Below are positions 491 to 62,489 of a stretch of DNA of 64,000 nt, piece by piece; the first letter of the stretch is position 1; every line of letters starts with the position of its first letter. Made by a program: the position numbers and the translations under genes. A model generated the notes under the pieces. The model saw only the letters and a list, made by a program, of their open reading frames with translations. It searched no databases and was not told where the DNA came from. Source of the stretch: an uncultured Eubacteriales bacterium (lineage in GTDB: Bacteria > Actinomycetota > Coriobacteriia > Anaerosomatales > JAHIQC01); the NCBI GenBank assembly GCA_964565645.1, contig CAZMFQ010000007.1, positions 1-64,000 on the forward strand, written 5' to 3'.

Positions 491-1690
491 TCAGTACAGT
501 TCTATCCGAAAGTCGGAGATGCCGCTCTTGAGCAGCACGGTGTAGCGATCCGACGCATCCCCATAGCCCTCGGTCTGCCAGCCTCCGTCAGCGTCGAGGA
601 GGTCCCGGTCGATGTCCGTGTTCGAGAGGCCCGCGTCGCGTTCGACCCTCACGTCGGTGCCGCGGGGGATCCTCAGAACCAGTTGCGAGATCCCGGCGTC
701 GAACGTGACCGGCACGTCACCGTCAGGGCTGTCGCCGAGCTCGATCGTGGAGTTGGAGACGCCGGTCTTGACCCGCAGTTCCGACAGGGCGAGCCCCGTC
801 AGGTCCGCGTCGAGTTCGCTGACACCCGAGTCGAGCGTGAGGTCCCAGGTCACGTCCTTGTCGAGCTCGACGTCCAACCGCGGGTCGCCGAGTCCGAAGA
901 AGCTGGGACCCTGCTCGGCATTGGTGATCCGGACCTTGGCCCGCGAACCGGTGACCGACACGTCGAACGCGGGCCTGCCCAGGGTGCTCGTACCGCTCGC
1001 GGCCACCAGATCCGTACCATCGGTGACGCTCAGACGCCCCACCGGTCCGGTGATGACCGCCTCGCCCGTGCGGACGTCAGGGTCCGAGGGTTCGGAGTAA
1101 TCGAACGGCTGCGTCTCGATCGATCCTGTCCTCCACCAGCTCCAGGAGGTCGACGTCGATGGCAGAACGAACGCTCCGTACCAGAGCGCGGCGAGCACCA
1201 CGAGGCTGGACAGCACCCGGATCCAGGTCGAGCGAAGACCCTTGCCGATCAGGTCGAGGCCGGCCGATACGAGGAGAACCGGCCAGAGTGAGAGCACCGA
1301 CCACCAGACGCTCCATGGCATCGCGCCGACGGAGTTGGCGATCAGGATCGCGCCGACGCTCACGCCGGTGAACCCTTCGACCACCTTGTTGAGCCGGCTG
1401 TCGTCGGCGGGGTAGGACCAGAACATCCCGCGTATGGAGAACACGATGACGAGGATGCCGGCCAGGCTCGCCGGCCAGAATCCCCAGAAGCTCATGCCGG
1501 GCATCACGCGCCCCATGATGATCCCGATACCGATCACCAGGAGCACGACGCCGAACCAGGCGGCACCACCGCCTCGACCGCGACGGTCACCCGGTCCCGG
1601 AGGTTGCGGGGCCGCAACCCCGGTCGCCGGTGGTGCGGGAGGTGCCGGAGGCGGGGGTGCCTGTACGGCGCCCGCGGGTTCCTCGGACAT
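491..1690 (-). CDS. LiaF-like / DUF4097-type envelope-stress membrane protein: Pro/Ala-rich N-terminus, several TM helices, C-terminal beta-strand repeat domain
   Basis: 399-aa ORF with TM segments followed by a repetitive D/T/V-rich beta region (VTGSRAKVRITNAEQG...VRVERDAGLSNTDIDRD) typical of the LiaF/DUF2154-DUF4097 'putative adhesin' fold. Lies immediately upstream of the PspC-domain gene on the same strand. Confidence 0.55.
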   Translation of the reverse strand: MSEEPAGAVQAPPPPAPPAPPATGVAAPQPPGPGDRRGRGGGAAWFGVVLLVIGIGIIMGRVMPGMSFWGFWPASLAGILVIVFSIRGMFWSYPADDSRLNKVVEGFTGVSVGAILIANSVGAMPWSVWWSVLSLWPVLLVSAGLDLIGKGLRSTWIRVLSSLVVLAALWYGAFVLPSTSTSWSWWRTGSIETQPFDYSEPSDPDVRTGEAVITGPVGRLSVTDGTDLVAASGTSTLGRPAFDVSVTGSRAKVRITNAEQGPSFFGLGDPRLDVELDKDVTWDLTLDSGVSELDADLTGLALSELRVKTGVSNSTIELGDSPDGDVPVTFDAGISQLVLRIPRGTDVRVERDAGLSNTDIDRDLLDADGGWQTEGYGDASDRYTVLLKSGISDFRIELY

Positions 1691-1759: not shown

Positions 1760-3058
1760 CTATGACGCGCGCGGCGTCCGCTCGACCCTCAACCGCGCGA
1801 TGCGGCGGCGGCGGACGGCCTCGACCGTGAAGGTGGTGTCGCCCTGGACGAGCGACTCGCCCGAGACGGGTATATGCCCCAACCGCACGAGCACCCATCC
1901 GGCGATCGTCTCGTATTCGTCGCTCTCGTCTACAGGGAGGCCCATCTCCACGGCGTCCTCTATCGGCAAGCGTCCGTCGATGATCCAGCGGTCCTCGCCG
2001 ACCTCGGTCACGAAGCGGCGATCATGATCGAACTCGTCGGCCACCTCACCGATGACCTCCTCGACGATGTCCTCGATCGTGGCGATCCCGGCGGTGCCGC
2101 CGTACTCGTCGACGACGATGGCCATGTGGTTGCGCATCGCCCGCATCTCGCCGAGGAGCGGCAGGATCCCCTTGGTCTCGGGCACGAACACCGGGGGCCG
2201 CGCCCATGCGGCGATGCCCTCGGACAGCCTTCCCTCCGACGCCGGTCCCACGAGGTCTTTGAGCAGCAGCACGCCGACGATCTTGTCGGTGTCCTCGGAG
2301 TAGACGGGGAGGCGCGAGAAGCCGGACTCTCGGAACACCCTGAGCGCGTCGTCGACGCGGGTCGTCTCCTCGATGGCGGCCATATCGACGCGCGGCACCA
2401 TGATCTCGCGGACGACCGTGTCCCCGAGCTCGAATATCTCGTGGATCATGCGCTTCTCTTCTTCGAGCAGGGACCCCTGCTCGGTGACGAGCAGCTTGAT
2501 CTCCTCCTCGGAGACACCCGGCCTGCCCTGGCCCGGCTTCACGCCGAGGAGTCGCGCGACGACGTCGGTCGAGCGCGCGAGGAACCACGCGACCGGTGCG
2601 ACCACGGTGGCGATGAAGTCCACCGGGCGCGCCACCGCCTTGGCCACGACCTCTGCGCGCTGAAGCCCGAGGCGCTTGGGCGCGAGTTCGCCAAAGACCA
2701 ACGTGACGTAGGAGATGACGACCGTGACGATGAACACCGAACCGCCGGCGGCCACACTCGCGAGCCAGGGATTGCCGAGCGACTCGAGCCAGCCTTGGAG
2801 CGGCTTGGCGAGCGAGACCGCGGCAGTGGCGGAGGCCATGAACCCGACGAGCGTGATGCCGATCTGGATCGTGGCGAGCAGGCGTGACGGGTCCTCTGTG
2901 AGTGCGATAGCGGCCTTGGCGCCCGCGGAACCCTCCTCGGCGGAGTGTTTGAGCGCGGCGCGGCGCGCGGATATGAGCGCTATCTCGGCCGCGGCGAAGT
3001 AGCCGTTGACCACGATGAGCACGAACACGAGCACCATCTCGAACAGATAATCTCCCAT
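1760..3058 (-). CDS. CNNM/CorC-HlyC family transporter (DUF21 TM domain + CBS pair + CorC_HlyC)
   Basis: Motifs GYFAAAEIALIS, ELAPKR, a CBS pair and the C-terminal CorC/HlyC region. Start trimmed to MGDYLFEM at 3058; the track ORF extends to 3169. Confidence 0.85.
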   Translation of the reverse strand: MGDYLFEMVLVFVLIVVNGYFAAAEIALISARRAALKHSAEEGSAGAKAAIALTEDPSRLLATIQIGITLVGFMASATAAVSLAKPLQGWLESLGNPWLASVAAGGSVFIVTVVISYVTLVFGELAPKRLGLQRAEVVAKAVARPVDFIATVVAPVAWFLARSTDVVARLLGVKPGQGRPGVSEEEIKLLVTEQGSLLEEEKRMIHEIFELGDTVVREIMVPRVDMAAIEETTRVDDALRVFRESGFSRLPVYSEDTDKIVGVLLLKDLVGPASEGRLSEGIAAWARPPVFVPETKGILPLLGEMRAMRNHMAIVVDEYGGTAGIATIEDIVEEVIGEVADEFDHDRRFVTEVGEDRWIIDGRLPIEDAVEMGLPVDESDEYETIAGWVLVRLGHIPVSGESLVQGDTTFTVEAVRRRRIARLRVERTPRAS

Positions 3059-3158
3059 ACGCACAGGGTACCCCACGCGGCATGGGATTGAAGCGATTGC
3101 TCCCAAACGCCGATTATCAGAGAATCGGGTCGCGTGCAGTTGGGCCCGCCATCCTGTT

Positions 3159-5150
3159 ATGGAGTCCACAGTGCCGGATGTGAACGACCGTCAGGAGCTC
3201 GAGGCCGTTGTCCGCGGGATAGCCTCCGCCGGCAAGGCGCTCAAGCTCTACCCGCCGACGAGCCCGATCCCGAGGCAGTCGGTCGATGCCGCGACCGCGG
3301 CGCTCGACACGTTCCTCGGCACGCATCCCGTGCTCTCGCTCTCGGTGGCCCGCGACGGCTTCGGCTGGTGCGGCCAGGAGCTCGGGGCCGGCATGATCGG
3401 CGTGGGCGATCTCGCCGACGCCCTACGCGACCACGGCGTCGCCGAGATCGATTTCCTCCCCGGCGCGAGCGCCGAGGACCTCATGGCCTTCATCGACGTG
3501 ATCACGAGAGACCCCGACGAGGTCCGCGCGGCAGGCGGCTTCGCCGCCCTGCTCGCAGCCTCTGGAGTCGACAACGTCCGCGCGGCCGACGTGCAGCTCA
3601 CGGTGGTCGACGCGGCATTCGCGCCCGAGAGCGGAGAGACCGACGAGTTCCTTCAGGAGTTGGCCAACGACCCCGATCGCCTCACCGGATGGATGAACGC
3701 CGCCGCCGCAGGCGACCCCGCCGCGTTCAGCGAGGGCCTCAACGAGCTCGCGGCCAACGCCGGAGACGAGGGTATGTCCCAACTGCTCGACACGCTGGCC
3801 GCTGCGTTCATGCGCCAGCCGACCGAGACACGCGACGTCATGCTCGGGCTCGCGATGGAGGGCGGATCGCTGCACGGGCTCGCGGGCGGCATGTTCGGAC
3901 GTCTCGCCGATGAGGACATCGCAGGCACGCTCACGGACGGTGTCTTCGGGTCCAACATGCTCTCGCTTTCGAGTGCGCTGACGGGCCTGCCTCTCGAATC
4001 CCGGATCGACCAGGTCAAGGCCCGCGTCCAGGCCATGCTCAAGCACGAGGGCCACGCCGACAAGGAGCTCGGCTTCCTCGACCATATGGTGGAGGTACGC
4101 CGCCGCGCCGAGCCCGAGCCCGCTCTCGTGGACGCCGACCAGCTCTACCGCAAGGTCGCGCTGGCCGCCGCGATGCCCGCCGAGGAGATCGACCGCCTCC
4201 GCATGGAGACCACCGGATCGCGCGGCGCGGCCAACCGCGCCGGTGTCGCGACGATGCTCGCCCTTCTCGACCAGCAGCGCGATTTCGAGCTGTACTGCCG
4301 GGGACTCGACGGTCTCGCCGCGATGGTGCCGAGACTCATCGAATCGGGCGAACTGGATGTGGCGCACACCGTCCTGAGCGAACTGACCGTGCGCGAATCG
4401 CGCGCGGTGCAACCCTGGCCCGAGCTCACGGGCCGCCTCCGCGCGGCCATCTCGACCGCGGTCTCGCCGCAGGCCATGGCCGCGCTCATCCGCGCGGTCA
4501 CGGCGGACCCGAGCACGCTGAGCGCGGCGCGCGAGATCACCCGCGTCGCCGGCGATGCCGCCGGTCCGGCCATCATCGAAGAGGCTATGGCCCACAAGGG
4601 CGAGGGCCTCAAAGCTGCCGAGGAGCTCCTCGGCAGGCGCGTCATCGACCTGCTCGCATCCCAGCTCGGGCACGCCCAGTGGTTCCAGCTCGCGCCAGCC
4701 GTCGCGCGGCTCGCGCTTGAGAGCGACCCGCGTGCGCAAGCCGCCATCGCGGCTGCGGCGCGCCGTCCCGACGAGCAGTCCCGCCGTGAGGTGGCCAACG
4801 GGTTGGCGATGGCCGAGTCGGCCGGAGCGCTGCAGTTGCTCGGCGAGATGACGGCCGACCCCAGCCCCGAGGTCGCGATCTCGGCGGTCCGGGCACTCGG
4901 CAAGGCGGCGACACCCGGCGCGGCACAGATCCTCGCGTCGCGGTTCGAGGCGCTCGACGCCGACAACAAGGACTTCCTGCTCGCACGCGAGATCATCGGC
5001 GCGCTCTCCCGAACGACCGACCCCGGCGCCGACGCCGCGCTCGCGCACATCGCGGCGCGCAAGGCCATCATCAAGCGCGGACACTTCGCGGAGATCGGGG
5101 ACCTGGCCCGCCAGGCCATAGCCGTCCGAGGACGGGGGACGAGCCGATGA
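3159..5150 (+). CDS. Soluble 663-aa protein: N-terminal domain shared with the downstream HD-GYP protein, C-terminal HEAT-like repeats
   Basis: N-terminus KALKLYPPTSPIPRQSVDAATAALDTF...GVAEIDFLPGASAEDLMAFIDVI parallels the N-terminus of the next ORF. C-terminus has PBS-lyase/HEAT-like repeats (PEVAISAVRALGKAATPGAAQIL...). Overlaps the next gene by 4 bp (ATGA). Confidence 0.6.
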   Translation: MESTVPDVNDRQELEAVVRGIASAGKALKLYPPTSPIPRQSVDAATAALDTFLGTHPVLSLSVARDGFGWCGQELGAGMIGVGDLADALRDHGVAEIDFLPGASAEDLMAFIDVITRDPDEVRAAGGFAALLAASGVDNVRAADVQLTVVDAAFAPESGETDEFLQELANDPDRLTGWMNAAAAGDPAAFSEGLNELAANAGDEGMSQLLDTLAAAFMRQPTETRDVMLGLAMEGGSLHGLAGGMFGRLADEDIAGTLTDGVFGSNMLSLSSALTGLPLESRIDQVKARVQAMLKHEGHADKELGFLDHMVEVRRRAEPEPALVDADQLYRKVALAAAMPAEEIDRLRMETTGSRGAANRAGVATMLALLDQQRDFELYCRGLDGLAAMVPRLIESGELDVAHTVLSELTVRESRAVQPWPELTGRLRAAISTAVSPQAMAALIRAVTADPSTLSAAREITRVAGDAAGPAIIEEAMAHKGEGLKAAEELLGRRVIDLLASQLGHAQWFQLAPAVARLALESDPRAQAAIAAAARRPDEQSRREVANGLAMAESAGALQLLGEMTADPSPEVAISAVRALGKAATPGAAQILASRFEALDADNKDFLLAREIIGALSRTTDPGADAALAHIAARKAIIKRGHFAEIGDLARQAIAVRGRGTSR

Positions 5151-6469
5151 GCGCCGTCACCGTCGTATCCGCGCTCGCAGCCGGCCGCAAGGCCTCGCAG
5201 CTGTATCCCCCGCAACACCCCGCGTTCATAGAGGCGATGGACGGCCTTGTCGCGGCGATCGGCGAGAGCTGCGCGTGCGAGCCCGCCGGAGCGTTCACCC
5301 TCAACCTCCACCAGGGCAGGCTGTACCACGAGAGCGTCGTCCTCCCCGACGAGACCCCCGGCGTCACGGCCATGGCCGAGGCGTTCGAGACCCGTCGGAT
5401 CGAAAGCCTGACCCTGCACTCCCAGATCGCCACCAAGGACGTCATCGGGCTCGTCGAGGTCCTGGGCCTGAAGCCCTCACCCGATCTCGACGTGAAAGCG
5501 GAACTGGACAGCCGAGGAGTCGCGGGGGTGACCCTGTCGATCATCGTGGACGAGGGCGATGCCGAGTGGGAGGAGCGCGACCGCGTCCGCGAGCAGGACC
5601 GTGCGCTGTACCACCGGCTCGTGTCGACGCTCAACCAGATGTCGGCACAGGTCGTGGCCGGGGACTTCCGCCAGATATCCAAGGCGGACTCGCTGGTGGG
5701 TGAGATCGTCGGGCGCCTCATGCAGGATGAAGCTGCCGTTCTTGGACTGGCGACCCTGCGCAGCGCGACCGAGGCCGAGGCCTACCACGCGGTCAACGTG
5801 ATGATCTACTCGCTCACCCTCGGCGCCGAGCTGGGCCTGCCGGCCGAGGGGCTGTCATCCCTGGGCACCAGCGCCCTCACCCACGACATCGGCAAGGCGG
5901 CTTTCGAGCACGACGACCCGTCCCAGGCCGAAGCCATGCGTACCATGCACTCTCAGGCCGGCGCGGACATCCTCTCGGGCCTCTCGCCCGAGGACCCGAC
6001 CCCGATGCTCGTGGCGTACGAACACCACATGCATGTCGACGGCACCGGCCACCCCGAACGTGCGGCCGACTACGTGGGCCATCCGTTCAGCCGTATGGTG
6101 GCCATCGCCGACCGCTACGCGAATCTGACCGCAGGCACGGGCGGCTTCGAGGCGCTCACACCCGACAAGGCGATCATCCAGATCCTGCGTGAGGCGGGAA
6201 GCATGCTCGATCCTCTGTTCGCCAGGCTCTTCGCCAAGGCCCTGGGTGTGTTCCCGGTGGGCTGCCTCGTGAGGCTCTCCGACAACTCGGTGGGCGTCGT
6301 CTGCGGCGCCGGTCTCGACCCGCTCACTCCGTGCGTGCGGGTCACCTGGGACACAGGCGGCATGGCCGTCGAGAAGCCCGAGCAGGTGGAACTGGCGACC
6401 GATGGTCGCACGATCATCGAAGTGGTCGATCCCGAGAGCCTCAACACACAGATCGCCGATCACCTCTGA
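5147..6469 (+). CDS. HD-GYP-type phosphodiesterase-like protein with a variant GYP motif (GHP)
   Basis: HDIGK motif plus YEHHMHVDGTGHP (canonical HHExxDGxGYP); N-terminal roughly 170-aa domain paralogous to the upstream ORF. Confidence 0.75.
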   Translation: MSAVTVVSALAAGRKASQLYPPQHPAFIEAMDGLVAAIGESCACEPAGAFTLNLHQGRLYHESVVLPDETPGVTAMAEAFETRRIESLTLHSQIATKDVIGLVEVLGLKPSPDLDVKAELDSRGVAGVTLSIIVDEGDAEWEERDRVREQDRALYHRLVSTLNQMSAQVVAGDFRQISKADSLVGEIVGRLMQDEAAVLGLATLRSATEAEAYHAVNVMIYSLTLGAELGLPAEGLSSLGTSALTHDIGKAAFEHDDPSQAEAMRTMHSQAGADILSGLSPEDPTPMLVAYEHHMHVDGTGHPERAADYVGHPFSRMVAIADRYANLTAGTGGFEALTPDKAIIQILREAGSMLDPLFARLFAKALGVFPVGCLVRLSDNSVGVVCGAGLDPLTPCVRVTWDTGGMAVEKPEQVELATDGRTIIEVVDPESLNTQIADHL

Positions 6470-6521
6470 GGGTGAGGCACACCTGCACCCAGGCGATGGC
6501 GAGCCCGGACCTGTCGCGCGA

Positions 6522-6878
6522 TCAGACCGGCGGTTGCGGGTTGATCTTGTGCAGCACCAGAGCGATGAGGGCGAGCCTGCGCCCCCTGTCCTGGCAGGCC
6601 TCCACGAAGCCGGCGATGGTCTCGCGCAGCTCGGGCGTCGGCCTGTAACGGATCAGACCGCCCGCGCACTGGAGGATCCTGCCCGCGCACAGCGCTTCGA
6701 TCTCGGGTTCCAGCTCTTCGGCGCGCCTACCCAGCCGTGAGGCCAGGCCGGCGGTGTCGAGGACGGCGTCGGGGTTGCGCTGGAAGAACACGAGGATATC
6801 CCACGTCAGCAAGGACCTGACGTGTCTCTCGACGAACTGCATGATGGAGGGTCCGAGAACCCCCTCGAGATCGTACAC
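6522..6878 (-). CDS. Small hypothetical protein, possibly a winged-helix regulator
   Basis: 118-aa ORF with an HTH-like stretch LTWDILVFFQRNPDAVLDTAGLASRLGRRAEELEPEIEALCAGRIL; no strong family call. Confidence 0.35.
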   Translation of the reverse strand: MYDLEGVLGPSIMQFVERHVRSLLTWDILVFFQRNPDAVLDTAGLASRLGRRAEELEPEIEALCAGRILQCAGGLIRYRPTPELRETIAGFVEACQDRGRRLALIALVLHKINPQPPV

Positions 6879-7186
6879 CCCAGCCGTCCCCTGTCAGTGT
6901 GATCATGACCGTGCCCCGCGAACCATGGCGCGCGAAATCATGGCGACCGTATACAACCCGCTGATTCTATCGGCACGAATCGCATGTCGAGTTTAACCTA
7001 AGGAAGTTCACATGTAATGTGGCGCGGTCGAACGGACTTCCGCAGGGTGTGAATGGTATGGCACCGAGACGAACGGTACGCCGAACGGCGCGGCTCCCGG
7101 AGGCCGACTGCGGGGCGGATGCGCCGATGCACGCCATCGTGTAGGGTTTGTGCGGTACTACAGACTCAGTTGAGAGAGGTGGGCAC

Positions 7187-7615
7187 ATGCCCTTGAACGA
7201 AGGAACCACCGTACGCGTCCACTATCGGGGGACCCTCGAGGACGGCGTCGAGTTCGATTCCAGCGAAGGCCGCGACCCGCTCGAGTTCACGCTCGGCGCA
7301 AGCCAGGTCATCCCCGGCTTCGAAGACGCCGTCATCGGCCTGGAGCCCGGCGAGTCAGTCACGGTGACCATCGACGCCGACAACGCCTACGGCCCGCACC
7401 TCGAAGAGGCGATCCAGAGTGTCCCCGTGAGCGCCTTCTGGGAGCCGCCCGCGCCCGGCATGGTCGTCCAGCTCGTCGCCCCCGACGGCACGCAGCTCGC
7501 CGCGACCGTGATGGATGTCGGCGAGGAAGAGGCACGGCTGGACTTCAACCACCCGCTCGCGGGACAAGCGCTGACCTTCGAGATCACCCTCGTCGAGGTC
7601 ATCGGCGCCAACTGA
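7187..7615 (+). CDS. FKBP-type peptidyl-prolyl cis-trans isomerase (SlyD/FkpB-like)
   Basis: VRVHYRGTLEDGVEFDSS...PLEFTLGASQVIPGFEDAVIGLEPGE is an FKBP fold with an insert-in-flap domain; GAGAGGTGG RBS precedes the ATG at 7187. Confidence 0.8.
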   Translation: MPLNEGTTVRVHYRGTLEDGVEFDSSEGRDPLEFTLGASQVIPGFEDAVIGLEPGESVTVTIDADNAYGPHLEEAIQSVPVSAFWEPPAPGMVVQLVAPDGTQLAATVMDVGEEEARLDFNHPLAGQALTFEITLVEVIGAN

Positions 7616-7642
7616 TCGAACGCTCAGGGCGGGTTCGCCGGA

Positions 7643-8338
7643 TCAGGCGTAGCCGGCGAACCGCTCGATCATCCGCTCCTCGGCAGGTATCGCGAGTTCG
7701 TCGAGGACGCGTTCCATGGCCCCCACCATCACCGGGGGGCCGGCGACGATCCACAGAGCGGGCGCCGAGAGCGCCCCATGCCGCCTCACGAGTTCCGCGG
7801 TGATGAACCCGCGCTCGCCTTGCCATCCATCGGACGGGTGCTCCAGCACGTGGACGATGCGCACGCCGCTGGTTTCCATCGCCTCGAACTCCGCGCGGTA
7901 CGGGATGCACTCGTCGTCACGGTTCCCGAAGAACACGAACGCCTGCAGCGGAAGCCCCGTCTGCACGGCGTGTCGCAGGATGCTTCTGGCCGGCGTTATC
8001 CCCACCCCGCCCACAAGGAACACGAGCCTGCTCGCACCCGACGGAACCAGGAGCCTTCCCGAAGGCTTCGACACGCGGATCGGGTCCCCCGGGACGAGCG
8101 CGTCGAGCGCCTGCTTGAACGCCGAGTCGCTGATCCGCGTGGTGAACTCCAGGTAGTCGTCCAGCGGCGCTGACGCGATCGTGAACGGCTTTCCCACAGG
8201 ACCGTCGGGGGTCTGTACCGTGACCACCGCGTACTGCCCCGGCACGAAGTCGTAGGCGGTCGGGCGCGAGAAGCGTAACGCCACCGCCTCCTCACCCCAG
8301 TCGGTGCGGGCCTGCATCCGTGCCTCGAAGGTCTCCAT
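7643..8338 (-). CDS. FAD/NAD(P)-binding oxidoreductase, ferredoxin-NADP reductase-like
   Basis: FNR-like two-domain pattern: RxYS-like FAD site (KPFTIASAP), GGVGITP NAD-binding loop, no TM segments. Confidence 0.7.
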   Translation of the reverse strand: METFEARMQARTDWGEEAVALRFSRPTAYDFVPGQYAVVTVQTPDGPVGKPFTIASAPLDDYLEFTTRISDSAFKQALDALVPGDPIRVSKPSGRLLVPSGASRLVFLVGGVGITPARSILRHAVQTGLPLQAFVFFGNRDDECIPYRAEFEAMETSGVRIVHVLEHPSDGWQGERGFITAELVRRHGALSAPALWIVAGPPVMVGAMERVLDELAIPAEERMIERFAGYA

Positions 8339-8401
8339 CTGAGTCTCCGTCCGTCGGCTGGGAACATACCCGTAACCGACGCTTATGAAAGGCGCGCTCA
8401 G

Positions 8402-9091
8402 ATGAACCTCGGCAGATTCGGGTCCGCATGTGTCGTACTGGTCGTCGCAACCCTCGTGTCGGGCGCCGCAGGCTGCTCGGCGCTGCGCGGCGACGGAGGC
8501 TCGAGCGGCGGTTCCTCGGCGGTCAAGGAACTCGAACGCTCGCAGATCCGCGAGTACGAGGGCAAGGACCTCTCGTCGATCACGGAGTTCCGGGAGAACT
8601 CCATCAAGGGTCCGCAGAAGGTCGACCGGGCGGCATACCGGCTCAGCGTCGAAGGGCTCGTCGCCACGCCCCTCGAGATGACGTACGACCAGGTGCTCGC
8701 CGATTTCGCGCCCTACAAGAAGGTCGTGACGCTCAACTGCGTCGAAGGCTGGAGCGTGGACATCCTGTGGGAGGGCGTGAAGCTGGCCGACCTGCTCGAC
8801 GCCGCCGGAGCGGATCCCGACGCCCGGGTGATCATCTTCCGTTCGGTCGACGGCTACTCGACCTCACTGCCCGCCGCGTACATACGCGATAACGACATCC
8901 TGCTCGCCTACAAGATGAACGGCGTCGAACTGCCCCCCGAACGCGGCTTCCCGTTCCAGCTGGTGGCCGAGGAGAAGTGGGGATACAAGTGGGCCAAGTG
9001 GATCGAGACGATCAAGGTGAGCGACGACACGTCGTTTGAGGGCTACTGGGAGAGCCGCGGGTACAGCAACACGGGCGACCTCGAGGAGTAG
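8402..9091 (+). CDS. Sulfite-oxidase-family molybdopterin oxidoreductase (MsrP/YedY-like), predicted lipoprotein
   Basis: Signal peptide with lipobox AAGC; Mo-cofactor domain motifs TLNCVEGWS...YKMNGVELPPERGFPFQLV...KWAKWIETIKV. Confidence 0.75.
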   Translation: MNLGRFGSACVVLVVATLVSGAAGCSALRGDGGSSGGSSAVKELERSQIREYEGKDLSSITEFRENSIKGPQKVDRAAYRLSVEGLVATPLEMTYDQVLADFAPYKKVVTLNCVEGWSVDILWEGVKLADLLDAAGADPDARVIIFRSVDGYSTSLPAAYIRDNDILLAYKMNGVELPPERGFPFQLVAEEKWGYKWAKWIETIKVSDDTSFEGYWESRGYSNTGDLEE

Positions 9092-9145
9092 CCTCGGCGG
9101 CCGATGCGGCGAGCGCGCCACGCGCGGGACCGCGAGACGCCGCGG

Positions 9146-34773: not shown

Positions 34774-37700
34774 ATGGGGGAACACGTCACAGCCGTCTGG
34801 AGTCTTCGCGTGCCCGAGCCTGCCGAGCATCCCGCCCAACCACGAACGCATCGCCCGTTCCGAGACGAGCTCTACTCGGCAGAGCGCCTGACACGGTGCG
34901 CCCGCGAACTGGCCGAGCAGCAGTCCTGGACCGACGAGCTGGCAAGCGCTCCGTCCCCCTTGTTCGAGATGATCGCCGACGCCTCCGCGGGCCTCTCCGC
35001 GGACAACTCGATGTTCTCCGAAGCCGTCCGCTCGCAACACCCCGTCGCGCCGGCGGCAGAATGGTTGCTGGACAACTTCTACCTCATCGAGGAACAGGTG
35101 CGGCTCGTCCGCGATGATCTGCCGGCCGGGTACAGCCGGGAACTCCCCCGGCTGACGCGCGGCGCGTTCGCGGGGTACCCGCGGGTCTTCGAAGCGATCG
35201 TCGAACTGCTCTCGCACACCGATTCAAGACTCGACGAGAGCGTGCTCACACAGTTCATCGACGGGTTCCAGGACGTCTCACCGCTCTCGATCGGAGAGAT
35301 ATGGGGCATCCCGATCGCCCTGCGCATCGCGCTCGTCGAGAACCTGGCCCGCCTGTCCGCACGCGTCGGAGAGACGCACCGGTCGACCCGCATGGCCGAC
35401 GAGTGGGCGGATCGCCTGCTGCTCGCCGTGCCCGACGGCTCGGATGCGCTGCGCGCGCTGATCGACGAGCTCGAGGAGCGCGTCGGCCTCGTGGACCCGA
35501 CGTTCCTCATGCGCCTCGCGCAACGGCTCTCGGGCCAGGACACCGGCGCCGACATGCTCGGTGCATGGCTCGAGCGGCGCTTGCGGGAGTCAGGGATCGA
35601 CCTGGGCGCCCTCAGCCACGAACTACAACAGGTCCAGGCGGCCGACCAGGTCTCGATCGCGAACTCGATAACCGCGATCCGCTTCCTGGACGCCTACGAG
35701 TGGCGCGGGTTCTTCGAGCATGCGAGCCTCGTGGACCAGGTCCTGCGCGAGGACCCCGTGGGCGTCTACCCGCATATGGACTTCAAGAGCCGCGACCGCT
35801 ACCGTCACGCTCTCGAAGGCATCGCCCGTCGCTGCCCCATGACCGAGATCGCTGTCGCCGAGGCGGCAGTCAGCCTGGCTCTCGACTCCATGACCCACGA
35901 CGCGACCGACGAGATCTCCGCGCACGTCGGCCACTACCTTATCAGCGGTGGTCGCTACGACCTCGAGTCGGCGGTCGCCTACCGCCCGCACCTGCGCGAG
36001 AGACTCTACCGCGGCCCGCTCGCGCGAAAGGGGCTCTTCTACTGGGGGATGCTCGGGATCACCACCCTGGCGCTGGCTGCGGTGCTGCTCGCCGCCATCG
36101 CCTCCTCGGGGGCCTCTACGGCGGCGCTCGCCGCCGTGATGCTCATCGCTCTGGTGCCGCTCTCGGATCTCGCGCTCAACATCACGAACCGGACGGCTGC
36201 GTGGGTCTTCCCGCCCCGTATCATGCCCAAGCTCGACTTCCTCTCTCCGGTCGCGGAGGCGCATCGCACGCTCGTGATCGTGCCGACACTCCTCTCCTCG
36301 GTCGGCGCGGTCCGCCACGTGCTCGACAACCTCGAGGTCGCGTACCTCGCCAACCGGGACGATGAGATCTACTTCGGGCTCCTCGGCGATCTCAAGACCG
36401 CTGCCGAGGAGCGCCTTCCCGGAGACGACGCGGTCATCGAGGCGGCCGTCGAGGGGATCGAGGCGCTCAACGACCGGTACCTCGTCGAGCACGGACGCCG
36501 GCCGTTCTGCCTGTTCGTGCGAGAGCGTCGGTACAGCGAGCAGGAGCGGACGTGGATGGGTTGGGAGCGCAAGCGCGGCGCGCTCACGGAACTCAACCGG
36601 ATGCTGCGCGGCTCCAACTCCACGTCGTTCTCCCACCGGATCGGCGAGGAGGCTGCGCTTGCCGCGGTGACGTTCGTGCTCACGATCGATTCGGACACCG
36701 TGCTCACCCGCGACGGGGCACGCAAGCTCATCAGCACGATCGCGCACCCGCTCAACCGCGCGGTGCTCCTGCCGGGCGACCGGCGGGTGTACATGGGCTA
36801 CGGGCTCATCCAGCCGCGCGTCGGTATGTCGCTGCCGGCGTCCTCGCGCTCGTTCTTCGCGTGGCTGTACTCGGGCGTCACCGGAGTGGACCCGTACGCC
36901 GGCGCGGTCTCAGACACCTACCAGGACGTGTTCGGCGAAGGAAGCTTCACCGGCAAGGGCATCTACGAGGTCAGCGTCTTCAACGCGGTGCTGGAGGGCC
37001 GTTTCCCCGAGGGGCGACTGCTGTCCCACGACCTGATCGAGGGCTGCTACCTGCGGGTCGGCCTCGCGAGCGACATCGAGGTGCTCGACGACCACCCTTC
37101 GAGTTACCTGTCCCATATGGCACGCATGCACCGCTGGGTGCGCGGCGACTGGCAGACGCTGCCGTGGCTGGGGGCGACGGTGCCCGCGGAAGGACGTCGC
37201 GAACGCAACGTGCTCTCGCCGCTGCACCGCTGGAAGCTGTTCGACAACGTGAGACGTTCGCTCGTGGCCCCGGCGTTGCTCATGCTCATGACCCTGGGCT
37301 GGACGGTTCTGCCGGGCCCCGCGTGGGCCTGGCCGCTCGCGATGTCACTCGTGGTCTTCTTCCCGGTCTACTTCAGCCTCGCGGACTCGATCGTGTTCCG
37401 CTCCCGCGAGGTCTCGTTCTCGACCACCATGGAATCAGCGTGGCGTGATTTCGGCCGTGACTCGGCGCGCGCCCTCCTGACGCTCTCACTGCTCCCTTAT
37501 CAGGCCTACGTGATGATCGATGCTGCCGTTCGCGCCGTCTGGCGCATGACGGTCTCGCAACGGCATCTGCTTGAATGGGAGACCGCGGCCGACGCCGACC
37601 GGCGTCTGGGCGTGGGCCTGTCCGGATTCGCGCGCAAGCTGGCGCCCTCCTCGGCGGTCGCCCTGCTGCTGCTCGCCCCCGCGGCGCTGCAGAGCCCGGC

Positions 37701-40700
37701 GCGCCTGGGGGTCTCGGCCGCACTCGCGCTGCTGTGGGCGGCAGCCCCCCTGATCGCGTGGCGCGTCTCGCGCACGAGTGTCCCGGCCGAGCGTGAACTC
37801 ACCCCTGCCGAGGAGTCGGAGCTACGACGCCTGGCGCGACGCACGTGGCGCTTCTTCGAGACGTTCGTCACCTCCGAAGGCCACCATCTGGCGCCAGACA
37901 ACTTCCAGGAGGACCCCAACGGCGAGGTCGCGTGGCGGACCTCGCCCACGAACATCGGTCTGCAGCTCCTTGGCAATCTCTCCGCGTACGACCTGGGGTA
38001 TCTCGACCTGACCGGTCTGATCGGACGAACCGCCGACACGCTTGCGGCCATGGCGGGCCTGAAGCGGTTCCGGGGGCACTTCTACAACTGGTACGACATA
38101 CGGACCCTCGCGCCGCTGCCTCCCGAGTACGTCTCGACCGTGGACAGCGGGAACCTCGCGGGGCATCTGCTCGTGCTCCGGATCGGCCTGCTCGAGGCCT
38201 CCGAAGCGCCGGTCCTGGGCGCGCAGTTGCTCTCGGGGATCGCTGATACGGCCGCGCTGGCGATCGAGGACCTCGTGACCGAGCAGGTCGCCGTCGAGTC
38301 CGCGCCCGCCCTGCGCGACCTGCGTGAACAGCTCGACGAGCTGGCCCGGGACGCCTCTCTCGAAGAGCCACCGCGCGACATGGCGCGCTGGGACGCCGTG
38401 CTCGAACGCATCGAGACCATGGCCGCCGCGGTGGATCGATCCGCCTCGGCGTTGTTCGGTGATGTCGATCCGCCGACCGCCGCGTCGCCACACCCGGGCT
38501 CCGCCGTCGCACGGGCCCACGCCTCGGTCGTCGCGGTGCTCGCCGCGGTCGAGGCCGCACGCTCCACCATCTCGTCGCTCACCCCATGGGCGGCGCATGC
38601 AGCGGATGTGCCGCAGGCGGTCCTCGAAGACCCACGCGGGGCGTCGCTGGTCCCGCTTCTCGATCACGTCCCGAGCCTCGTGGGTCTCGCCGAGGGACTG
38701 GGCGACGCACTCGCGGCGCTTTCCTCGATCGCCGAGGAGCCGCCGGGAGACTCCTTGGCGGAACGCGAAGCGGAACGCGCCTGGGCGACCGGGATGCTCG
38801 ACGGCGTGCTGGGAGCGCGACCGGCCGCGGCACAGCTCCTCGGCCAGCTGCACCTCGACGCGGCGATGGCGCGCGAGATGTGGGAGCACACCGACTTCAC
38901 GACCCTCTTCGACGAGCAGCGGCTGCTGTTCTCGATCGGCTACAACACGGCGGAGGGACGACTCGATCCGTCGTACTATGACATGCTCGCCTCGGAATGC
39001 CGGCTCGCGAGCTTCCTCGCGATCGCCAAGGGCGACATCCCGCAAGAGCACTGGTTCCGGCTCGGTCGGGCGATCACCCAGACCGCGGGCGGACGCGCGC
39101 TGCTGTCGTGGAGCGCCTCGATGTTCGAGTACCTCATGCCGCTGCTGGTCATGCGCTCGTGGCCGATGACCCTGCTCGACCAGACCTACGATTCGGTGGT
39201 GCGCCGGCAGATCCAGTACGGGCGCGAACGCGGCGTTCCGTGGGGGGTCTCGGAATCGGCGTTCAACGCCAAGGACGCGGGGCTCGTGTATCAGTACCAG
39301 GCCTTCGGTGTGCCGGGGCTCGGGCTGAAGCGCGGGTTGTCCGACGACGTGGTCGTCGCCCCGTACGCGACGGTGCTCGCCCTGCCCGTCGCACCCGGCG
39401 AGGCCATCGCGAACCTCCACGAACTCGCGGGCCAGGGAGCCCGGGGCCGCTACGGCTTCTACGAGAGCCTCGACTACACGCCGGGCAGGGTGCCGGCGGG
39501 ATCCAGCCGCGCGGTGGTGAGGGCGTACTTCGCTCACCACCAGGGCATGAGCTTCGTCGCCCTCGCCAACGAGCTTTCGGGCATACCGATGCACGATCGG
39601 TTCCACCGCGATCCGATGGTCGCCTCGGCGGAGCTGCTCCTGCAGGAGCGGGTGCCCCGGCACGTGCAACTCGCGACGCCCAACGTGGGCGAGGTGGAGC
39701 ACGTGCGCTCGGTGCGCGAGCTGCCGCCCCCCGTCACCCGCGCCTACCCGCTCGCCGACACGCCCGTGCCTGCGACGCACTTCCTGTCCAACGGCCGCTA
39801 CTCGGTCATGGTCACCAACGGGGGCGGGGGCTATAGCCGCTGGCAGGACGTCGCGATCAGCCGCTACCGCGAGGACGTGACGCGCGATTGCTGGGGACAG
39901 TTCTTCTACCTGCGCGACACCGCGACCGGCCGCGTGCACAACGCCGCGAGCAACCCGTGCCCCGAACGTCCCGACGAGTATCACGTGACGTTCGCGCATG
40001 ACAAGGCCGAGTACCGTCGCATCGACGGGGACATCGAGGTGCACACCGAGATCTCCGTGAGCCCCGAGGACGACGCCGAGATCCGCCGCATCGGCATCAC
40101 CAATCATGGGCGCACCCGCGTCGAGCTCGAACTGACGTCCTACTTCGAGCTCGCGATGGCCGATCAGGCGGCCGATCAGGCGCACAAGTCGTTCTCGAAC
40201 CTCTTCGTCGAGACCGAGGCGCTCGACCCGATGCGGGCTCTGCTCTTCTCGCGGCGCCCGCGTTCCGCCGAGGAGCGTCGGATCTGGGGTGTCCACGTCC
40301 TCGCTTGCGAGGACGGCGACGAGTGCGACTGGACCTACGAGACCGACCGCGCTCGGTTCCTCGGCAGGCTCAACGGGGCCGAGGCCCCCACCGCCGTCAG
40401 GGCAGGCGGGCCGCTCAGTCGCACGACGGGACCGGTGCTCGACCCCTGCTGCGCGATCCGCAAGACGGTCATGGTCGAAGGCGGCGAGAGCGTGCGCCTC
40501 GTGTTCACCACGGGAGTGGCCCAGACGCGTGAGGAAGCGGTCCGTCTGGCCGAGAAGTACGGCGACCCGCGCAGTGCGCAGCGCGCCATCGACCTGGCGT
40601 GGACGGCGGCCCAGATCGAACTGCGCGACCTGGGTATCACCCCGGCGGAAGCCGTCGTGCTCGAACGTCTGGCGTCACGCCTCCTGCTCACCGACCCCGC

Positions 40701-43614
40701 CTCCGTGCTCAAGATCAAGACCCCCGTGGAGAACGGGCTGCAGATGTCGGGCCTGTGGTCCCTCGGCATCTCCGGCGACCTGCCGATCCTGCTCGTGCGC
40801 ATCGAAGAGCCGGAACACGCCCCCCTCGTGCGTCAGGCGCTTCTCGCCCACCAGTACTGGCGCCACAAGGGCCTCGTCTCCGACCTCGTGATACTCAACA
40901 CGCGACCGACCGCGTACTCCGACGAACTCGACGACCGCCTGAGGATGCTCGTGCGCACGGGCCACGCGCTTCAGATGCTCGATCGTCCGGGCGGGGTGTT
41001 CCTCCGCCGCTCCGACCAGATGCATCCCGACGTCCTCAACCTGCTGCTCACGGTCGCGCGCGCCACGCTCGACGGCGACAGCGGACCCCTCGAGGTCCAG
41101 CTCAACCGGCGTGTGCCGCGTGCCGAGGAGCCGCCCGCCCTCATGCCTGCGCGTGCGCCTGAAGCGTGGGCCGCCCCCTCGCCGCCCCGGCCGGACCTGC
41201 TCTTCGACAACGGATGGGGCGGGTTCGACTCGTCGGCGGACGAATACGTGATCGTGCTCGACGAGGGGCGCTGCACGCCCGCGCCGTGGATCAACGTGAT
41301 GGCATCGCCGGAGTTCGGCTGTATGGTCTCCGAAGCCGGAATCGGCTGCACCTGGGCGCTCAACAGCCATGAGAACCGCATCTCCACGTGGAACAACGAC
41401 CCCGTCTCGGACGGGTCCGGCGAGGTCATATACCTGCGCGATGAGGAGACCGGGGAGTTCTGGAGCCCCACGCCGCTGCCGGCCCGGGGGCCCGGCACCT
41501 ACACCGTCCGCCACGGCCGGGGCTACACGCGCTTCGAACACGAGTCCCACGGGCTCGAGCAGCGGCTCGAGTGGTTCGTGCCCGTCGAGGACCCGGTGCG
41601 CGTGGTGCGACTGACGCTGCGCAACACGGGCGATACGGTGCGGCGACTGTCCGCGACGCAGTTCGTGGAGTGGTCGCTCGGCAGTTCGCGCAGCAAGGCG
41701 CAGCACCTGGTCGTGACGTGGTTCGACGCCGAGCACCAGCTTCTGACCGCGCACAACCACTTCAACATGGACTTCCCGGGACGCGCCGCGTTCCTGGCCA
41801 CCGACGCCGAACTGCACTCGTATACCGGGAGCCGCACCGAGTTCGTCGGTCGCAACCGCGGACCTGCAGACCCAGCGGCGATGGGCCGCAAGCGCCTCGG
41901 CGGGCGCACCGGTCGCTTCCACGACAACTGCGGCGCTCTGATGGTCGCCCTGGAGCTGGCGCCCGGCGAGGAGCGCAGCGTCTGCTTCCTGCTCGGGCAG
42001 ACGGACACCCTTCAGCAGGCTCGCGAGCTCGTGGCCGCCTATCGCGACCCGAGCCGGGTCGACGCCGAACTCGCCGGTGTGTGCGAGCAATGGCGGCGCG
42101 TGCTCGGCAGCGTGCGAGCCCGGACGCCGGACCCGGCGCTCGACCTGCTCGTCAACGGCGCGCTCCTGTACCAGGCCCTTGCCTGCCGGATCTGGGGTCG
42201 CACCGCGACCTACCAGTCGAGCGGCGCGTTCGGCTTCCGCGACCAGCTCCAGGATTCGCTCGCGCTGCTCCTGGCACGTCCGGACCTCGTGCGCGAGCAG
42301 ATCGTCGAGGCCTCACGACACCAGTTCGCAGAGGGCGATGTCCTGCACTGGTGGCAGCCCTCCTCGGGCCGGGGAGTCCGGACGCGGATCACCGACGACC
42401 GACACTGGCTGCCGTTCGTGGTCGCCGAGTACCTCGACGTGACCGGGGACCGAAGCGTTCTGGACGAGGTCACCCCGTTCATCGAAGGACCCGAAGTCGA
42501 TCCCGATCGTGAGGACAACTACCTCCAACCGGCGCTCTCCGAGCAGGCCGTGAGCGTCTACGAACACTGTGTGGCGGCCCTGGAGTCCGGGACCGGGGTC
42601 GGCGACCACGGACTCCCCCTCATGGGTGGCGGCGACTGGAACGACGGCATGAACCGCGTCGGCATCGGGGGCCGTGGCGAGAGCGTGTGGCTCGCCTGGT
42701 TCCTGGCGACGGTGCTCAGGCGCTTCGCCCCGATCTGCGAGATGCGCGGAGAGGCCGGCCGCGCAGCCGAGTACCGCAGGCGGGCCCAGGCGTTCATAGA
42801 GGCCGCCGAGGAGTCGGGATGGGACGGATCGTGGTATCGCCGCGCGTACTTCGACGACGGCACCCCGTTGGGATCACGCTCCTCGGCAGAGTGCAGGATC
42901 GACGCCATCGCGCAGGCATGGGCGACGATCAGCGACGGTGCGGACCCGGGCCGGGCCCAGATGGCGCTCGACGCCGTGGAGGACAAGCTCGTCGACCGCG
43001 AGCATGGACTGATCGCGCTGCTCACACCGCCGTTCGACACGATGCCGCACGACCCCGGCTACATCAAAGGGTACGTCCCCGGCGTTCGCGAGAACGGCGG
43101 TCAGTACACGCATGCGGCCATCTGGGTGGTGCTCGCTCACCTCCTGCGTGGCGATGGCGACGAGGGGCACGGCCTTCTGAGCATGATCAACCCGATCAAC
43201 CACGCACGCACCGACGAAGAGGCGGAACACTACAAGGTCGAGCCCTACGTGGTCGCCGCGGACGTGTACGGGGCGGCACCGCATGCGGGCAGGGGCGGCT
43301 GGACCTGGTACACCGGCTCCGCTTCGTGGTTCTACCACGTCGCGGTCCGCAACCTCTTGGGCTTATGGGTCGAGGACGTCGAAGGGATCCCGCATCTGCG
43401 GTTGGATCCGTGCATCCCGAGATCATGGAAGGGCTACACGCTCACGTACACGCACGGAACGACGACCTACCGGATCGGGTTCGAGAATCCGCGTGGGGTC
43501 AACCGCGGCGTGGCGTACGTCGAACTCGATGGGATGAGGCTCGAGAGCGCCTCGGTGCCGCTGCGCGATGACGGCGGCAGCCACGACGTGCGGGTGGTGC
43601 TCCTCGGCGGTTAG
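34774..43614 (+). CDS. ndvB: Cyclic beta-1,2-glucan synthase-like giant protein (NdvB/Cgs/ChvB architecture: N-terminal domain + TM region + GT84 glycosyltransferase + C-terminal GH94 phosphorylase-like domain)
   Basis: 2946-aa ORF. GT region has TIDSDT, WERKRG and HRWVRGDWQ motifs. C-terminal region has the GH94 signatures GGGDWNDGMNRVG...GESVWLAWF and a six-hairpin (alpha/alpha)6 region. Confidence 0.8.
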   Translation: MGEHVTAVWSLRVPEPAEHPAQPRTHRPFRDELYSAERLTRCARELAEQQSWTDELASAPSPLFEMIADASAGLSADNSMFSEAVRSQHPVAPAAEWLLDNFYLIEEQVRLVRDDLPAGYSRELPRLTRGAFAGYPRVFEAIVELLSHTDSRLDESVLTQFIDGFQDVSPLSIGEIWGIPIALRIALVENLARLSARVGETHRSTRMADEWADRLLLAVPDGSDALRALIDELEERVGLVDPTFLMRLAQRLSGQDTGADMLGAWLERRLRESGIDLGALSHELQQVQAADQVSIANSITAIRFLDAYEWRGFFEHASLVDQVLREDPVGVYPHMDFKSRDRYRHALEGIARRCPMTEIAVAEAAVSLALDSMTHDATDEISAHVGHYLISGGRYDLESAVAYRPHLRERLYRGPLARKGLFYWGMLGITTLALAAVLLAAIASSGASTAALAAVMLIALVPLSDLALNITNRTAAWVFPPRIMPKLDFLSPVAEAHRTLVIVPTLLSSVGAVRHVLDNLEVAYLANRDDEIYFGLLGDLKTAAEERLPGDDAVIEAAVEGIEALNDRYLVEHGRRPFCLFVRERRYSEQERTWMGWERKRGALTELNRMLRGSNSTSFSHRIGEEAALAAVTFVLTIDSDTVLTRDGARKLISTIAHPLNRAVLLPGDRRVYMGYGLIQPRVGMSLPASSRSFFAWLYSGVTGVDPYAGAVSDTYQDVFGEGSFTGKGIYEVSVFNAVLEGRFPEGRLLSHDLIEGCYLRVGLASDIEVLDDHPSSYLSHMARMHRWVRGDWQTLPWLGATVPAEGRRERNVLSPLHRWKLFDNVRRSLVAPALLMLMTLGWTVLPGPAWAWPLAMSLVVFFPVYFSLADSIVFRSREVSFSTTMESAWRDFGRDSARALLTLSLLPYQAYVMIDAAVRAVWRMTVSQRHLLEWETAADADRRLGVGLSGFARKLAPSSAVALLLLAPAALQSPARLGVSAALALLWAAAPLIAWRVSRTSVPAERELTPAEESELRRLARRTWRFFETFVTSEGHHLAPDNFQEDPNGEVAWRTSPTNIGLQLLGNLSAYDLGYLDLTGLIGRTADTLAAMAGLKRFRGHFYNWYDIRTLAPLPPEYVSTVDSGNLAGHLLVLRIGLLEASEAPVLGAQLLSGIADTAALAIEDLVTEQVAVESAPALRDLREQLDELARDASLEEPPRDMARWDAVLERIETMAAAVDRSASALFGDVDPPTAASPHPGSAVARAHASVVAVLAAVEAARSTISSLTPWAAHAADVPQAVLEDPRGASLVPLLDHVPSLVGLAEGLGDALAALSSIAEEPPGDSLAEREAERAWATGMLDGVLGARPAAAQLLGQLHLDAAMAREMWEHTDFTTLFDEQRLLFSIGYNTAEGRLDPSYYDMLASECRLASFLAIAKGDIPQEHWFRLGRAITQTAGGRALLSWSASMFEYLMPLLVMRSWPMTLLDQTYDSVVRRQIQYGRERGVPWGVSESAFNAKDAGLVYQYQAFGVPGLGLKRGLSDDVVVAPYATVLALPVAPGEAIANLHELAGQGARGRYGFYESLDYTPGRVPAGSSRAVVRAYFAHHQGMSFVALANELSGIPMHDRFHRDPMVASAELLLQERVPRHVQLATPNVGEVEHVRSVRELPPPVTRAYPLADTPVPATHFLSNGRYSVMVTNGGGGYSRWQDVAISRYREDVTRDCWGQFFYLRDTATGRVHNAASNPCPERPDEYHVTFAHDKAEYRRIDGDIEVHTEISVSPEDDAEIRRIGITNHGRTRVELELTSYFELAMADQAADQAHKSFSNLFVETEALDPMRALLFSRRPRSAEERRIWGVHVLACEDGDECDWTYETDRARFLGRLNGAEAPTAVRAGGPLSRTTGPVLDPCCAIRKTVMVEGGESVRLVFTTGVAQTREEAVRLAEKYGDPRSAQRAIDLAWTAAQIELRDLGITPAEAVVLERLASRLLLTDPASVLKIKTPVENGLQMSGLWSLGISGDLPILLVRIEEPEHAPLVRQALLAHQYWRHKGLVSDLVILNTRPTAYSDELDDRLRMLVRTGHALQMLDRPGGVFLRRSDQMHPDVLNLLLTVARATLDGDSGPLEVQLNRRVPRAEEPPALMPARAPEAWAAPSPPRPDLLFDNGWGGFDSSADEYVIVLDEGRCTPAPWINVMASPEFGCMVSEAGIGCTWALNSHENRISTWNNDPVSDGSGEVIYLRDEETGEFWSPTPLPARGPGTYTVRHGRGYTRFEHESHGLEQRLEWFVPVEDPVRVVRLTLRNTGDTVRRLSATQFVEWSLGSSRSKAQHLVVTWFDAEHQLLTAHNHFNMDFPGRAAFLATDAELHSYTGSRTEFVGRNRGPADPAAMGRKRLGGRTGRFHDNCGALMVALELAPGEERSVCFLLGQTDTLQQARELVAAYRDPSRVDAELAGVCEQWRRVLGSVRARTPDPALDLLVNGALLYQALACRIWGRTATYQSSGAFGFRDQLQDSLALLLARPDLVREQIVEASRHQFAEGDVLHWWQPSSGRGVRTRITDDRHWLPFVVAEYLDVTGDRSVLDEVTPFIEGPEVDPDREDNYLQPALSEQAVSVYEHCVAALESGTGVGDHGLPLMGGGDWNDGMNRVGIGGRGESVWLAWFLATVLRRFAPICEMRGEAGRAAEYRRRAQAFIEAAEESGWDGSWYRRAYFDDGTPLGSRSSAECRIDAIAQAWATISDGADPGRAQMALDAVEDKLVDREHGLIALLTPPFDTMPHDPGYIKGYVPGVRENGGQYTHAAIWVVLAHLLRGDGDEGHGLLSMINPINHARTDEEAEHYKVEPYVVAADVYGAAPHAGRGGWTWYTGSASWFYHVAVRNLLGLWVEDVEGIPHLRLDPCIPRSWKGYTLTYTHGTTTYRIGFENPRGVNRGVAYVELDGMRLESASVPLRDDGGSHDVRVVLLGG

Positions 43615-58220: not shown

Positions 58221-58226
58221 GACATG

Positions 58227-59330: not shown

Positions 59331-59339
59331 CTACTTCTT

Positions 59340-60952: not shown

Positions 60953-60977
60953 CTCTCACCTATTCAATCAAGAGCGG

Positions 60978-61859: not shown

Positions 61860-61999
61860 ATCCCCCGCACTTTCCGAAACCACCCACGTGACCACAGGCT
61901 TATCAACAGCCCAGGGTATCGAAGCGCCGTGCAAAACCAGTGTTCCGTGGCCGTATCCACTCACGGCTTCAAGGGTGGGGCCCCGATCCTGAAAGCCTT

Positions 62000-62440: not shown

Positions 62441-62489
62441 AACACACAACTGAGCAGCAGTCGTTTCCGGCGATTCGTATGCCGAATCG

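Follow-up and report, generated by a model that had tools for sequence, protein, structure and literature searches.

The 64,000-nucleotide (nt) stretch of DNA analyzed here, hereafter the window (positions 1 to 64,000 of contig CAZMFQ010000007.1, assembly GCA_964565645.1), has a G+C content of ~0.67, and its closest named relatives in a genome scan are metagenome-assembled, uncultured Coriobacteriia and other Actinomycetota. Two forward-strand genes of this window are the subject of this work (Table 1): A, which encodes a HEAT-repeat protein, and B, which encodes a divergent HD-GYP protein. Public annotations of their relatives read 'HD domain-containing protein', 'HEAT repeat domain-containing protein' or 'hypothetical protein'. 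Translation of A probably begins at the GTG at 3171, yielding 659 amino acids (aa), since (i) a GGAG sequence at 3162-3165 lies 6 nt upstream of this codon; and (ii) a 95% identical homolog (P0121) is 659 aa long and has the N-terminus MPDVNDRQ. Location on the same strand together with a start codon that overlaps the preceding stop codon, the arrangement by which a translationally coupled operon pair is recognized, was found for A and B, and the overlap suggests that their translation is coupled. Because both flanking genes (a CNNM/CBS/CorC transporter gene and a 118-aa open reading frame [ORF]) are on the opposite strand, A and B look like an isolated two-gene operon.

The two proteins were found to begin with one homologous domain of about 130 residues, the N-domain. 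A common N-terminal domain had been proposed in an earlier, sequence-only reading of this DNA from the motifs K-A-L-K-LYPP in A and K-A-S-Q-LYPP in B, and its homology was confirmed at the level of sequence profiles and predicted structures. Profiles were built from 120 homologs per family, and the first 170 residues of the A and B families were compared. Profile-profile alignment by hhalign matched residues 15-142 of A to residues 4-130 of B at 97.4% probability (expect value [E] 1.3e-11), while the control comparisons were null, with 0.9% probability for the reversed B profile and 0.2% both when the A N-domain was set against the catalytic region of B and when the remainder of A was set against any part of B. 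Likewise, a hidden Markov model (HMM) built from A proteins alone recovered members of the B family, with E values between 1e-5 and 1e-11. Apart from a single 3-residue indel the two families align colinearly, and in this joint alignment L-Y-P is invariant and one proline and one glycine are nearly so. Other invariant residues are specific to one family (R14, H24, N53, G57, and Y60 in B; R19, S35, P38, and R65 in A). AlphaFold models (predicted local distance difference test [pLDDT] 94.3 for the A N-domain and 89.2 for B) have the same order of elements in both N-domains, namely two long helices, a small sheet, and then alternating helices and strands of an alpha/beta unit. The possibility that the resemblance is one of chance or composition in Ala/Gly-rich proteins of high G+C content draws on the pairwise BLASTP comparison of A with B, which fell short of significance (E 0.19, with 226 residues aligned at 21% identity), but we regard its probability as negligible. 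The profile, HMM, and fold evidence, along with the presence of the domain in the library matches described below, rules it out.

The N-domain was not matched by any model in Pfam and NCBIfam scans. DUF3391 (PF11871), a candidate named in the sequence-only reading, gave no Pfam match at E <= 1; as DUF3391 has been equated with Bd1817's N-terminal domain (PMC12943098), which is a 78-residue pleckstrin-like domain (PMC3188283), this identity was rejected. In the PDB no fold match to the A N-domain was detected, and the family-profile sequence search matched only the HD-GYP and HEAT parts of the two proteins. Against a library of 1.84 billion representatives clustered at 50% identity, the N-domain profile had 5,536 protein matches at E <= 1e-3, of which 1,242 reached E <= 1e-10. 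By these matches the domain is present in more than 5,000 such clusters and in at least the Actinomycetota, Gemmatimonadota, Nitrospirota, and Planctomycetota. Among 61 distant members, HEAT repeats accompany the N-domain in 43, making this the commonest architecture, while five carry HD_5 and six carry GGDEF plus AAA_16, the latter a STAND-like ATPase. Judged from these architectures, the N-domain is one mobile domain that has been joined to various C-terminal modules. The six GGDEF proteins (P0359, P0362, P0364, P0368, P0375, and P0309) are fusions of ~1,000-1,400 residues with the order GGDEF-AAA_16-N-N-...-HEAT; two of them carry a source name, Planctomycetota in both cases. All six have two N-domains in tandem within a single chain, as do P0354, P0272, P0275, P0279, and others. 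The architecture of GGDEF, AAA_16, tandem N-domains, and HEAT appears to be undescribed, and at one such locus (L081) the HEAT part is a separate gene downstream. The TPR/CHAT proteins P0304 and P0321 were discarded as spurious members, in which only the helix hairpin was matched, repeatedly. A neighbor-joining tree of the N-domains placed A-type roughly apart from B-type sequences across phyla, a separation that, with long branches and no bootstrap, is only suggestive.

Beyond the N-domain, protein A (186 homologs collected) has a middle region that is conserved within the family and gave no Pfam, NCBIfam, or PDB sequence match over residues ~150-500 and no similarity to B, followed by C-terminal HEAT repeats. 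Pfam HEAT_2 (PF13646) matched residues 529-596 at 30.9 bits against a cut-off of 27.7 (E 3e-7), and the A family profile matched alphaRep structures at E 5.7e-22. The sequence-only reading, which had A continue into a long HEAT-like repeat region, thus proved right about the kind of protein and too generous about its extent, as sequence methods detect HEAT repeats only in the C-terminal ~125 residues (~504-629). Its further suggestion, of a paralog A in which catalysis was lost and a scaffold acquired, found no support because A shows no vestige of an HD domain; a degenerate HD sought outside the N-domain was not detected (hhalign 0.2% probability).

Conservation of the pair was examined by a genome scan of one genome per species, which gave 176 relatives of B, of which 80 loci were kept and all their ORFs searched by HMM for A-type genes. 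In essentially every kept locus that was long enough, B was immediately preceded, on its own strand, by an A-type gene. About 68 of the 80 loci are from Coriobacteriia or other Actinomycetota. The distant loci (L069-L080) include Gemmatimonadota, Longimicrobium among them, and Nitrospirota; here the B relatives are 27-33% identical to B and are likewise preceded by an N-domain protein, with HEAT repeats in all nine of the upstream proteins tested. An N-domain plus HD-GYP gene likewise follows all three additional distant A-type proteins that were picked from the library matches (3/3). The overlap of stop and start codons was found in 69 of 78 loci, distant phyla included, and measures 4 nt (ATGA or GTGA) in 52 and 1 nt (TGATG) in 17. 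The two-gene module with probable translational coupling, which the sequence-only reading had taken from the ATGA overlap of the single pair, was in this respect upheld as a conserved one. At two loci the module is duplicated in tandem, with two consecutive A/B-type pairs on one strand (L077, labeled only 'bacterium', 3626..10041; L078, a Nitrospirota genome, 3539..11084).

Protein B was assigned to the HD-GYP family by sequence and by fold, as had been claimed. Pfam HD_5 (PF13487) matched residues 217-356 at 45.3 bits against a cut-off of 27.2, and Pfam HD (PF01966) matched at 29.1 against a cut-off of 22. When the B family profile was compared with the PDB, the matches were PmGH (4MCW, 2e-14), PA4781 (4R8Z, 3e-13), V-cGAP3 (5Z7C, ~1.3e-9), and Bd1817 (3TM8, 3e-5). 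A Foldseek search with the B model (pLDDT 89) returned the fold of solved HD-GYP domains, with 4mcw, 3tm8, 4r8z, and 9rc0/9rbz (DvhD included) making up the top 13 matches at E 1e-7 to 1e-3; the cyclic di-AMP (c-di-AMP) phosphodiesterase PgpH was next at E ~1e-3. Residue equivalences were taken from a profile alignment to PmGH, and conservation was counted in 121 relatives. The PmGH residues H189, H221, D222, K225, H250, H276, and H277 correspond to H214, H246, D247, K250, H268, H293, and H294 of B, all invariant in the relatives, and D305 corresponds to D322, so that the full set of PmGH metal ligands (H189, H221, D222, H250, H276, H277, and D305) is present in B of the window. An acidic residue at position 209, five before H214, is also invariant (Glu in 104, Asp in 17). 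The glutamate of the trinuclear site (PmGH E185) is absent, the equivalent position 210 being occupied by Ala in the window and by varying residues across the clade. Distant pair members carry Tyr at this position, and their B-type proteins keep the canonical GYP, the FDA..T..RSY motif, and a D-x-D-E-Y-T-F-T-H motif, which corresponds to the Y-T-F/Y-T-Y (Y/F) subgroup that Bellini et al. presume to be binuclear (PMC4159591).

In the GYP loop of B, the HHExxDGxGYP consensus is only partly retained (HH, D, G, G, and P). The sequence-only reading had stressed the GHP in place of GYP as a possible determinant of substrate specificity. This emphasis is misplaced: position 302 is Phe in 44, Trp in 34, Tyr in 28, and Val in 4 of the relatives and only rarely His, so GHP is one state of a freely varying position, and in PmGH the Y285A substitution hardly altered activity (PMC4159591). 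From the alignment, the departures that are clade-wide are the change of HHE to HHM, the lack of conservation at the D308 equivalent, and the loss of the R314/K317 contacts. The HHM (or HHQ) form is shared by distant B-types, being found as HHM in all 12 distant genome loci whose sequence extends that far and as HHQ in one further contig; replacement of this Glu, which in Bd1817 stabilizes the second turn of the GYP loop (PMC3188283), is thus a mark of the entire paired clade. The Coriobacteriia branch, as the aligned sequences read, has shed additional consensus residues. Its B proteins have a relaxed nucleotide-contact surface, and their substrate or turnover rate may differ from those of a textbook HD-GYP enzyme.

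Overall, the A-B pair looks like an undescribed cyclic di-GMP (c-di-GMP) signaling module that occurs in at least three bacterial phyla. The c-di-GMP context, which the sequence-only reading had also invoked, is plausible in light of the family assignment of B, the fusions of the N-domain to GGDEF, and GGDEF genes near the pair in related genomes. In 12 Coriobacteriia loci (8615..10525 in L018, 9060..10814 in L021, 7942..9567 in L062, and nine others), proteins of 540-690 aa with an intact RxGGDEF motif are encoded on the minus strand, 2-5 kb downstream of the pair, and therefore at least some members of the lineage encode such a protein close to the pair. In the reading we propose, A and B would be two subunits of a conserved signaling module in which the N-domains tether the phosphodiesterase to a HEAT scaffold. 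The A and B N-domains would pair, giving an A-B heterodimer that mimics in trans the tandem N-N arrangement found in cis in the fusions. Coupled translation favors matched amounts of two proteins, and here it would do so for A and B. The HEAT solenoid would dock the complex on a partner or target, and B would degrade c-di-GMP, or a closely related nucleotide (for example, pGpG or cyclic GMP-AMP [cGAMP]), locally or under the control of its partner. The homology of the N-domains, the adjacency of the pair, the overlap of the genes, the chains with tandem N-domains, and the intact core metal site are consistent with this model, to which we give an even chance of being correct. The broader proposal, that the N-domain is a widespread pairing domain that assembles c-di-GMP enzymes on HEAT scaffolds (HD-GYP in trans, GGDEF in cis), is more tentative, and we think it somewhat easier to doubt than to accept.

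Several observations weigh against this tethered phosphodiesterase. No GGDEF gene was detected when the motif was sought within the 64-kb window. No HD-GYP gene adjoins the GGDEF fusions at the loci examined (among L081-L083), and therefore the N-domain is not tied to phosphodiesterases only. At the catalytic site of B, 62 of the 121 relatives have Asn at the equivalent of D305 (D322), the equivalent of D308 is Ala in the window (A325) and Glu, Ala, Asp, or Thr in the clade at large, T331 and F334 stand in place of the guanine contacts R314 and K317 at positions that vary in the clade, and the Glu of HHE is Met (M295) in 119 of 121; in PmGH, D308A reduced activity about as severely as did mutation of metal ligands (PMC4159591). 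Moreover, Bd1817, itself a non-consensus HD-GYP protein, is without detectable activity (PMC3188283). The changes at the D305 and D308 equivalents and the lost guanine contacts, together with the variable GYP tyrosine and the Bd1817 precedent, would fit an alternative in which Coriobacteriia B is a weak or dead HD-GYP that serves as a nucleotide receptor or trigger, with A as the effector or scaffold and the pair sensing the messenger. That distant pair members retain AD..FDA..T..RSY and GYP makes the Coriobacteriia branch look secondarily degenerate. We nonetheless consider this alternative fairly unlikely, as (i) six metal ligands, K250, and the acidic residue at 209 are invariant in all 121 sequences, which would be costly without chemistry; (ii) B of the window has Asp at 322; and (iii) PmGH carrying D305A, Y285A, R314A, or K317A stayed active (PMC4159591).

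The missing guanine-specific contacts and the HHM/HHQ and G-x-P variants could also mean that B is an active phosphodiesterase of another substrate, such as 3'3'-cGAMP, c-di-AMP, pGpG, or another nucleotide, and the matches of the B family profile to the cGAMP-specific V-cGAP3 and of the B model to PgpH point the same way. The nearest relatives of B in sequence and fold are c-di-GMP HD-GYP enzymes, however, GGDEF cyclases elsewhere carry the domain it shares with its partner, and related genomes have GGDEF genes close to the pair, so a different substrate seems to us unlikely. A further alternative leaves the catalysis aside and questions the contact between A and B: the N-domains might be independent sensors of the same ligand or partner, with adjacency only ensuring co-expression, and the invariant LYP..P loop along with the family-specific invariant residues could form a ligand site. 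The tandem N-domains within single chains and the tight overlap of stop and start codons that is kept across phyla fit an obligate two-domain unit better, and we judge independent sensors to be distinctly improbable.

The surroundings of the pair were compared among the Coriobacteriia loci. Synteny is conserved, with the CNNM/CBS/CorC transporter gene divergently upstream and genes for LiaF-like, FNR-type reductase, and HlyIII-family proteins nearby, so the pair belongs to the core genome and not to a mobile island. PADLOC defense-protein models matched no system, the sole hit being a weak one to Cas3 HD (E 0.005). The 118-aa ORF, which had no Pfam or PADLOC match, always directly follows B in Coriobacteriia and is absent beside distant pairs. 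Its identity is 68-91% in 61 of the 62 Coriobacteriia loci where it is present (38% in L050), a degree of conservation above that of A (~50%) and of B (~55%). Two large secreted-looking proteins, encoded at 9146..10795 (-) and 11537..14476 (+), have repeated 'G.DRY.TA' sequences resembling cell-wall-binding repeats. Elsewhere in the window, a 2,946-aa ORF is found at 34774..43614 (+), and from 58000 to 64000 the G+C content drops from ~0.67 to 0.55-0.59, which may indicate foreign or otherwise distinct DNA.

Table 1. Features of the A-B locus, in window coordinates
Feature	Position	Strand	Description
Gene A	3159..5150	+	663-aa ORF; N-domain, middle region, and C-terminal HEAT repeats
A N-domain	3189..3602	+	aa 11-148 (HMM); invariant LYP is L30 Y31 P32
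A middle region	3603..4667	+	aa 149-503; conserved within family
A HEAT/PBS-lyase-type repeats	4668..5045	+	aa 504-629
A/B junction (ATGA)	5147..5150	+	B start codon overlaps A stop codon
Gene B	5147..6469	+	440 aa; N-domain, linker helices, divergent HD-GYP, and small C-terminal beta domain
B N-domain	5150..5545	+	aa 2-133; LYP is L19 Y20 P21
B long linker helix	5558..5659	+	aa 138-171, N-domain to catalytic domain; AlphaFold model, lower pLDDT (66-86)
B HD-GYP domain	5675..6244	+	aa 177-366; H214, H246-D247, H268, H293-H294, D322, plus K250
B GYP-loop signature HHMHVDGTGHP	6023..6055	+	aa 293-303; canonical form HHExxDGxGYP
B C-terminal five-stranded beta domain	6266..6427	+	aa 374-427; AlphaFold model, pLDDT ~90
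LiaF-like membrane protein gene	491..1690	-	syntenic neighbor
CNNM/CBS/CorC transporter gene	1760..3169	-	syntenic neighbor; flanks the pair upstream, divergent
118-aa ORF	6522..6878	-	flanks the pair, convergent with B
FNR-type reductase gene	7643..8338	-	syntenic neighbor
HlyIII-family gene	10729..11400	-	syntenic neighbor

Among the c-di-GMP phosphodiesterases, the HD-GYP class is the least understood, also in how its N-terminal modules exert control. The pair provides a concrete, testable case: an HD-GYP enzyme with an obligate HEAT neighbor and an uncatalogued common domain, in several phyla, where the same domain is also fused to diguanylate cyclases. If N-domains pair, they would offer a simple, modular means of fixing c-di-GMP enzymes to scaffolds, with a bearing on how specificity is kept in cells that have many such enzymes, and the result would be a previously unrecognized architecture for local c-di-GMP signaling with its own HD-GYP subfamily (HHM/HHQ for HHE). 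The clade also supplies natural variants of the GYP loop (HHM and G-F/W/H-P) with which to probe its function. Literature searches, with subscription journals outside their coverage, returned no description of the A-B pair, the N-domain, or the HHM subfamily.

Compared with known systems, B shares with the c-di-GMP phosphodiesterases PmGH (4MCW), PA4781 (4R8Z), and RpfG the H..HD..H..HH..D ligands, the lysine of HDxGK, and the DGxGxP loop; it scores above the HD_5 gathering threshold, its model is nearest to solved HD-GYP structures, and distant B-types have the Y-T-F/Y-T-Y motif of the HD-GYP subgroup presumed to be binuclear. It differs from them in that (i) the Glu of HHE is Met, the GYP tyrosine is Phe, Trp, Tyr, His, or Val, and the D308, R314, and K317 equivalents are not conserved in Coriobacteriia; (ii) the N-domain is not REC, GAF, PAS, or DUF3391; and (iii) B is always accompanied by an upstream HEAT partner that shares its N-domain. 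Bd1817 of Bdellovibrio (3TM8) resembles B in having a non-consensus HD-GYP domain, an N-terminal module attached through linker helices, and an altered GYP tyrosine, and the B model aligns to it with a Foldseek TM-score of 0.60 (normalized to Bd1817). The N-terminal module of Bd1817 is a pleckstrin-like beta domain of 78 residues, in contrast to the helical hairpin and alpha/beta unit of ~130 residues in B; Bd1817 also alters a metal-ligand histidine (HEE), whereas B retains HH, and Bd1817 has no described scaffold gene paired with it. Protein A resembles HEAT and PBS-lyase-type repeat proteins (HEAT_2 and the alphaRep designs) over residues 504-629, but adds to these an N-terminal signaling-type domain, a 350-residue middle region, and a locked HD-GYP neighbor gene.

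That c-di-GMP enzymes may be held in specific complexes, which makes their signaling local, is a wider concept into which the pair would fit. The likeness that we propose is to RpfG, which interacts with GGDEF proteins via its GYP motif (PMC3188283), in that a c-di-GMP enzyme would act in a specific complex and signal locally. Unlike the RpfG-GGDEF interaction, the coupling of A and B would rely on a dedicated domain that is homologous in the two partners, whose genes overlap. As read from annotation and sequence, the HD-GYP phosphodiesterase family is known, and what is new in this system is the accessory domain and the obligate partner.

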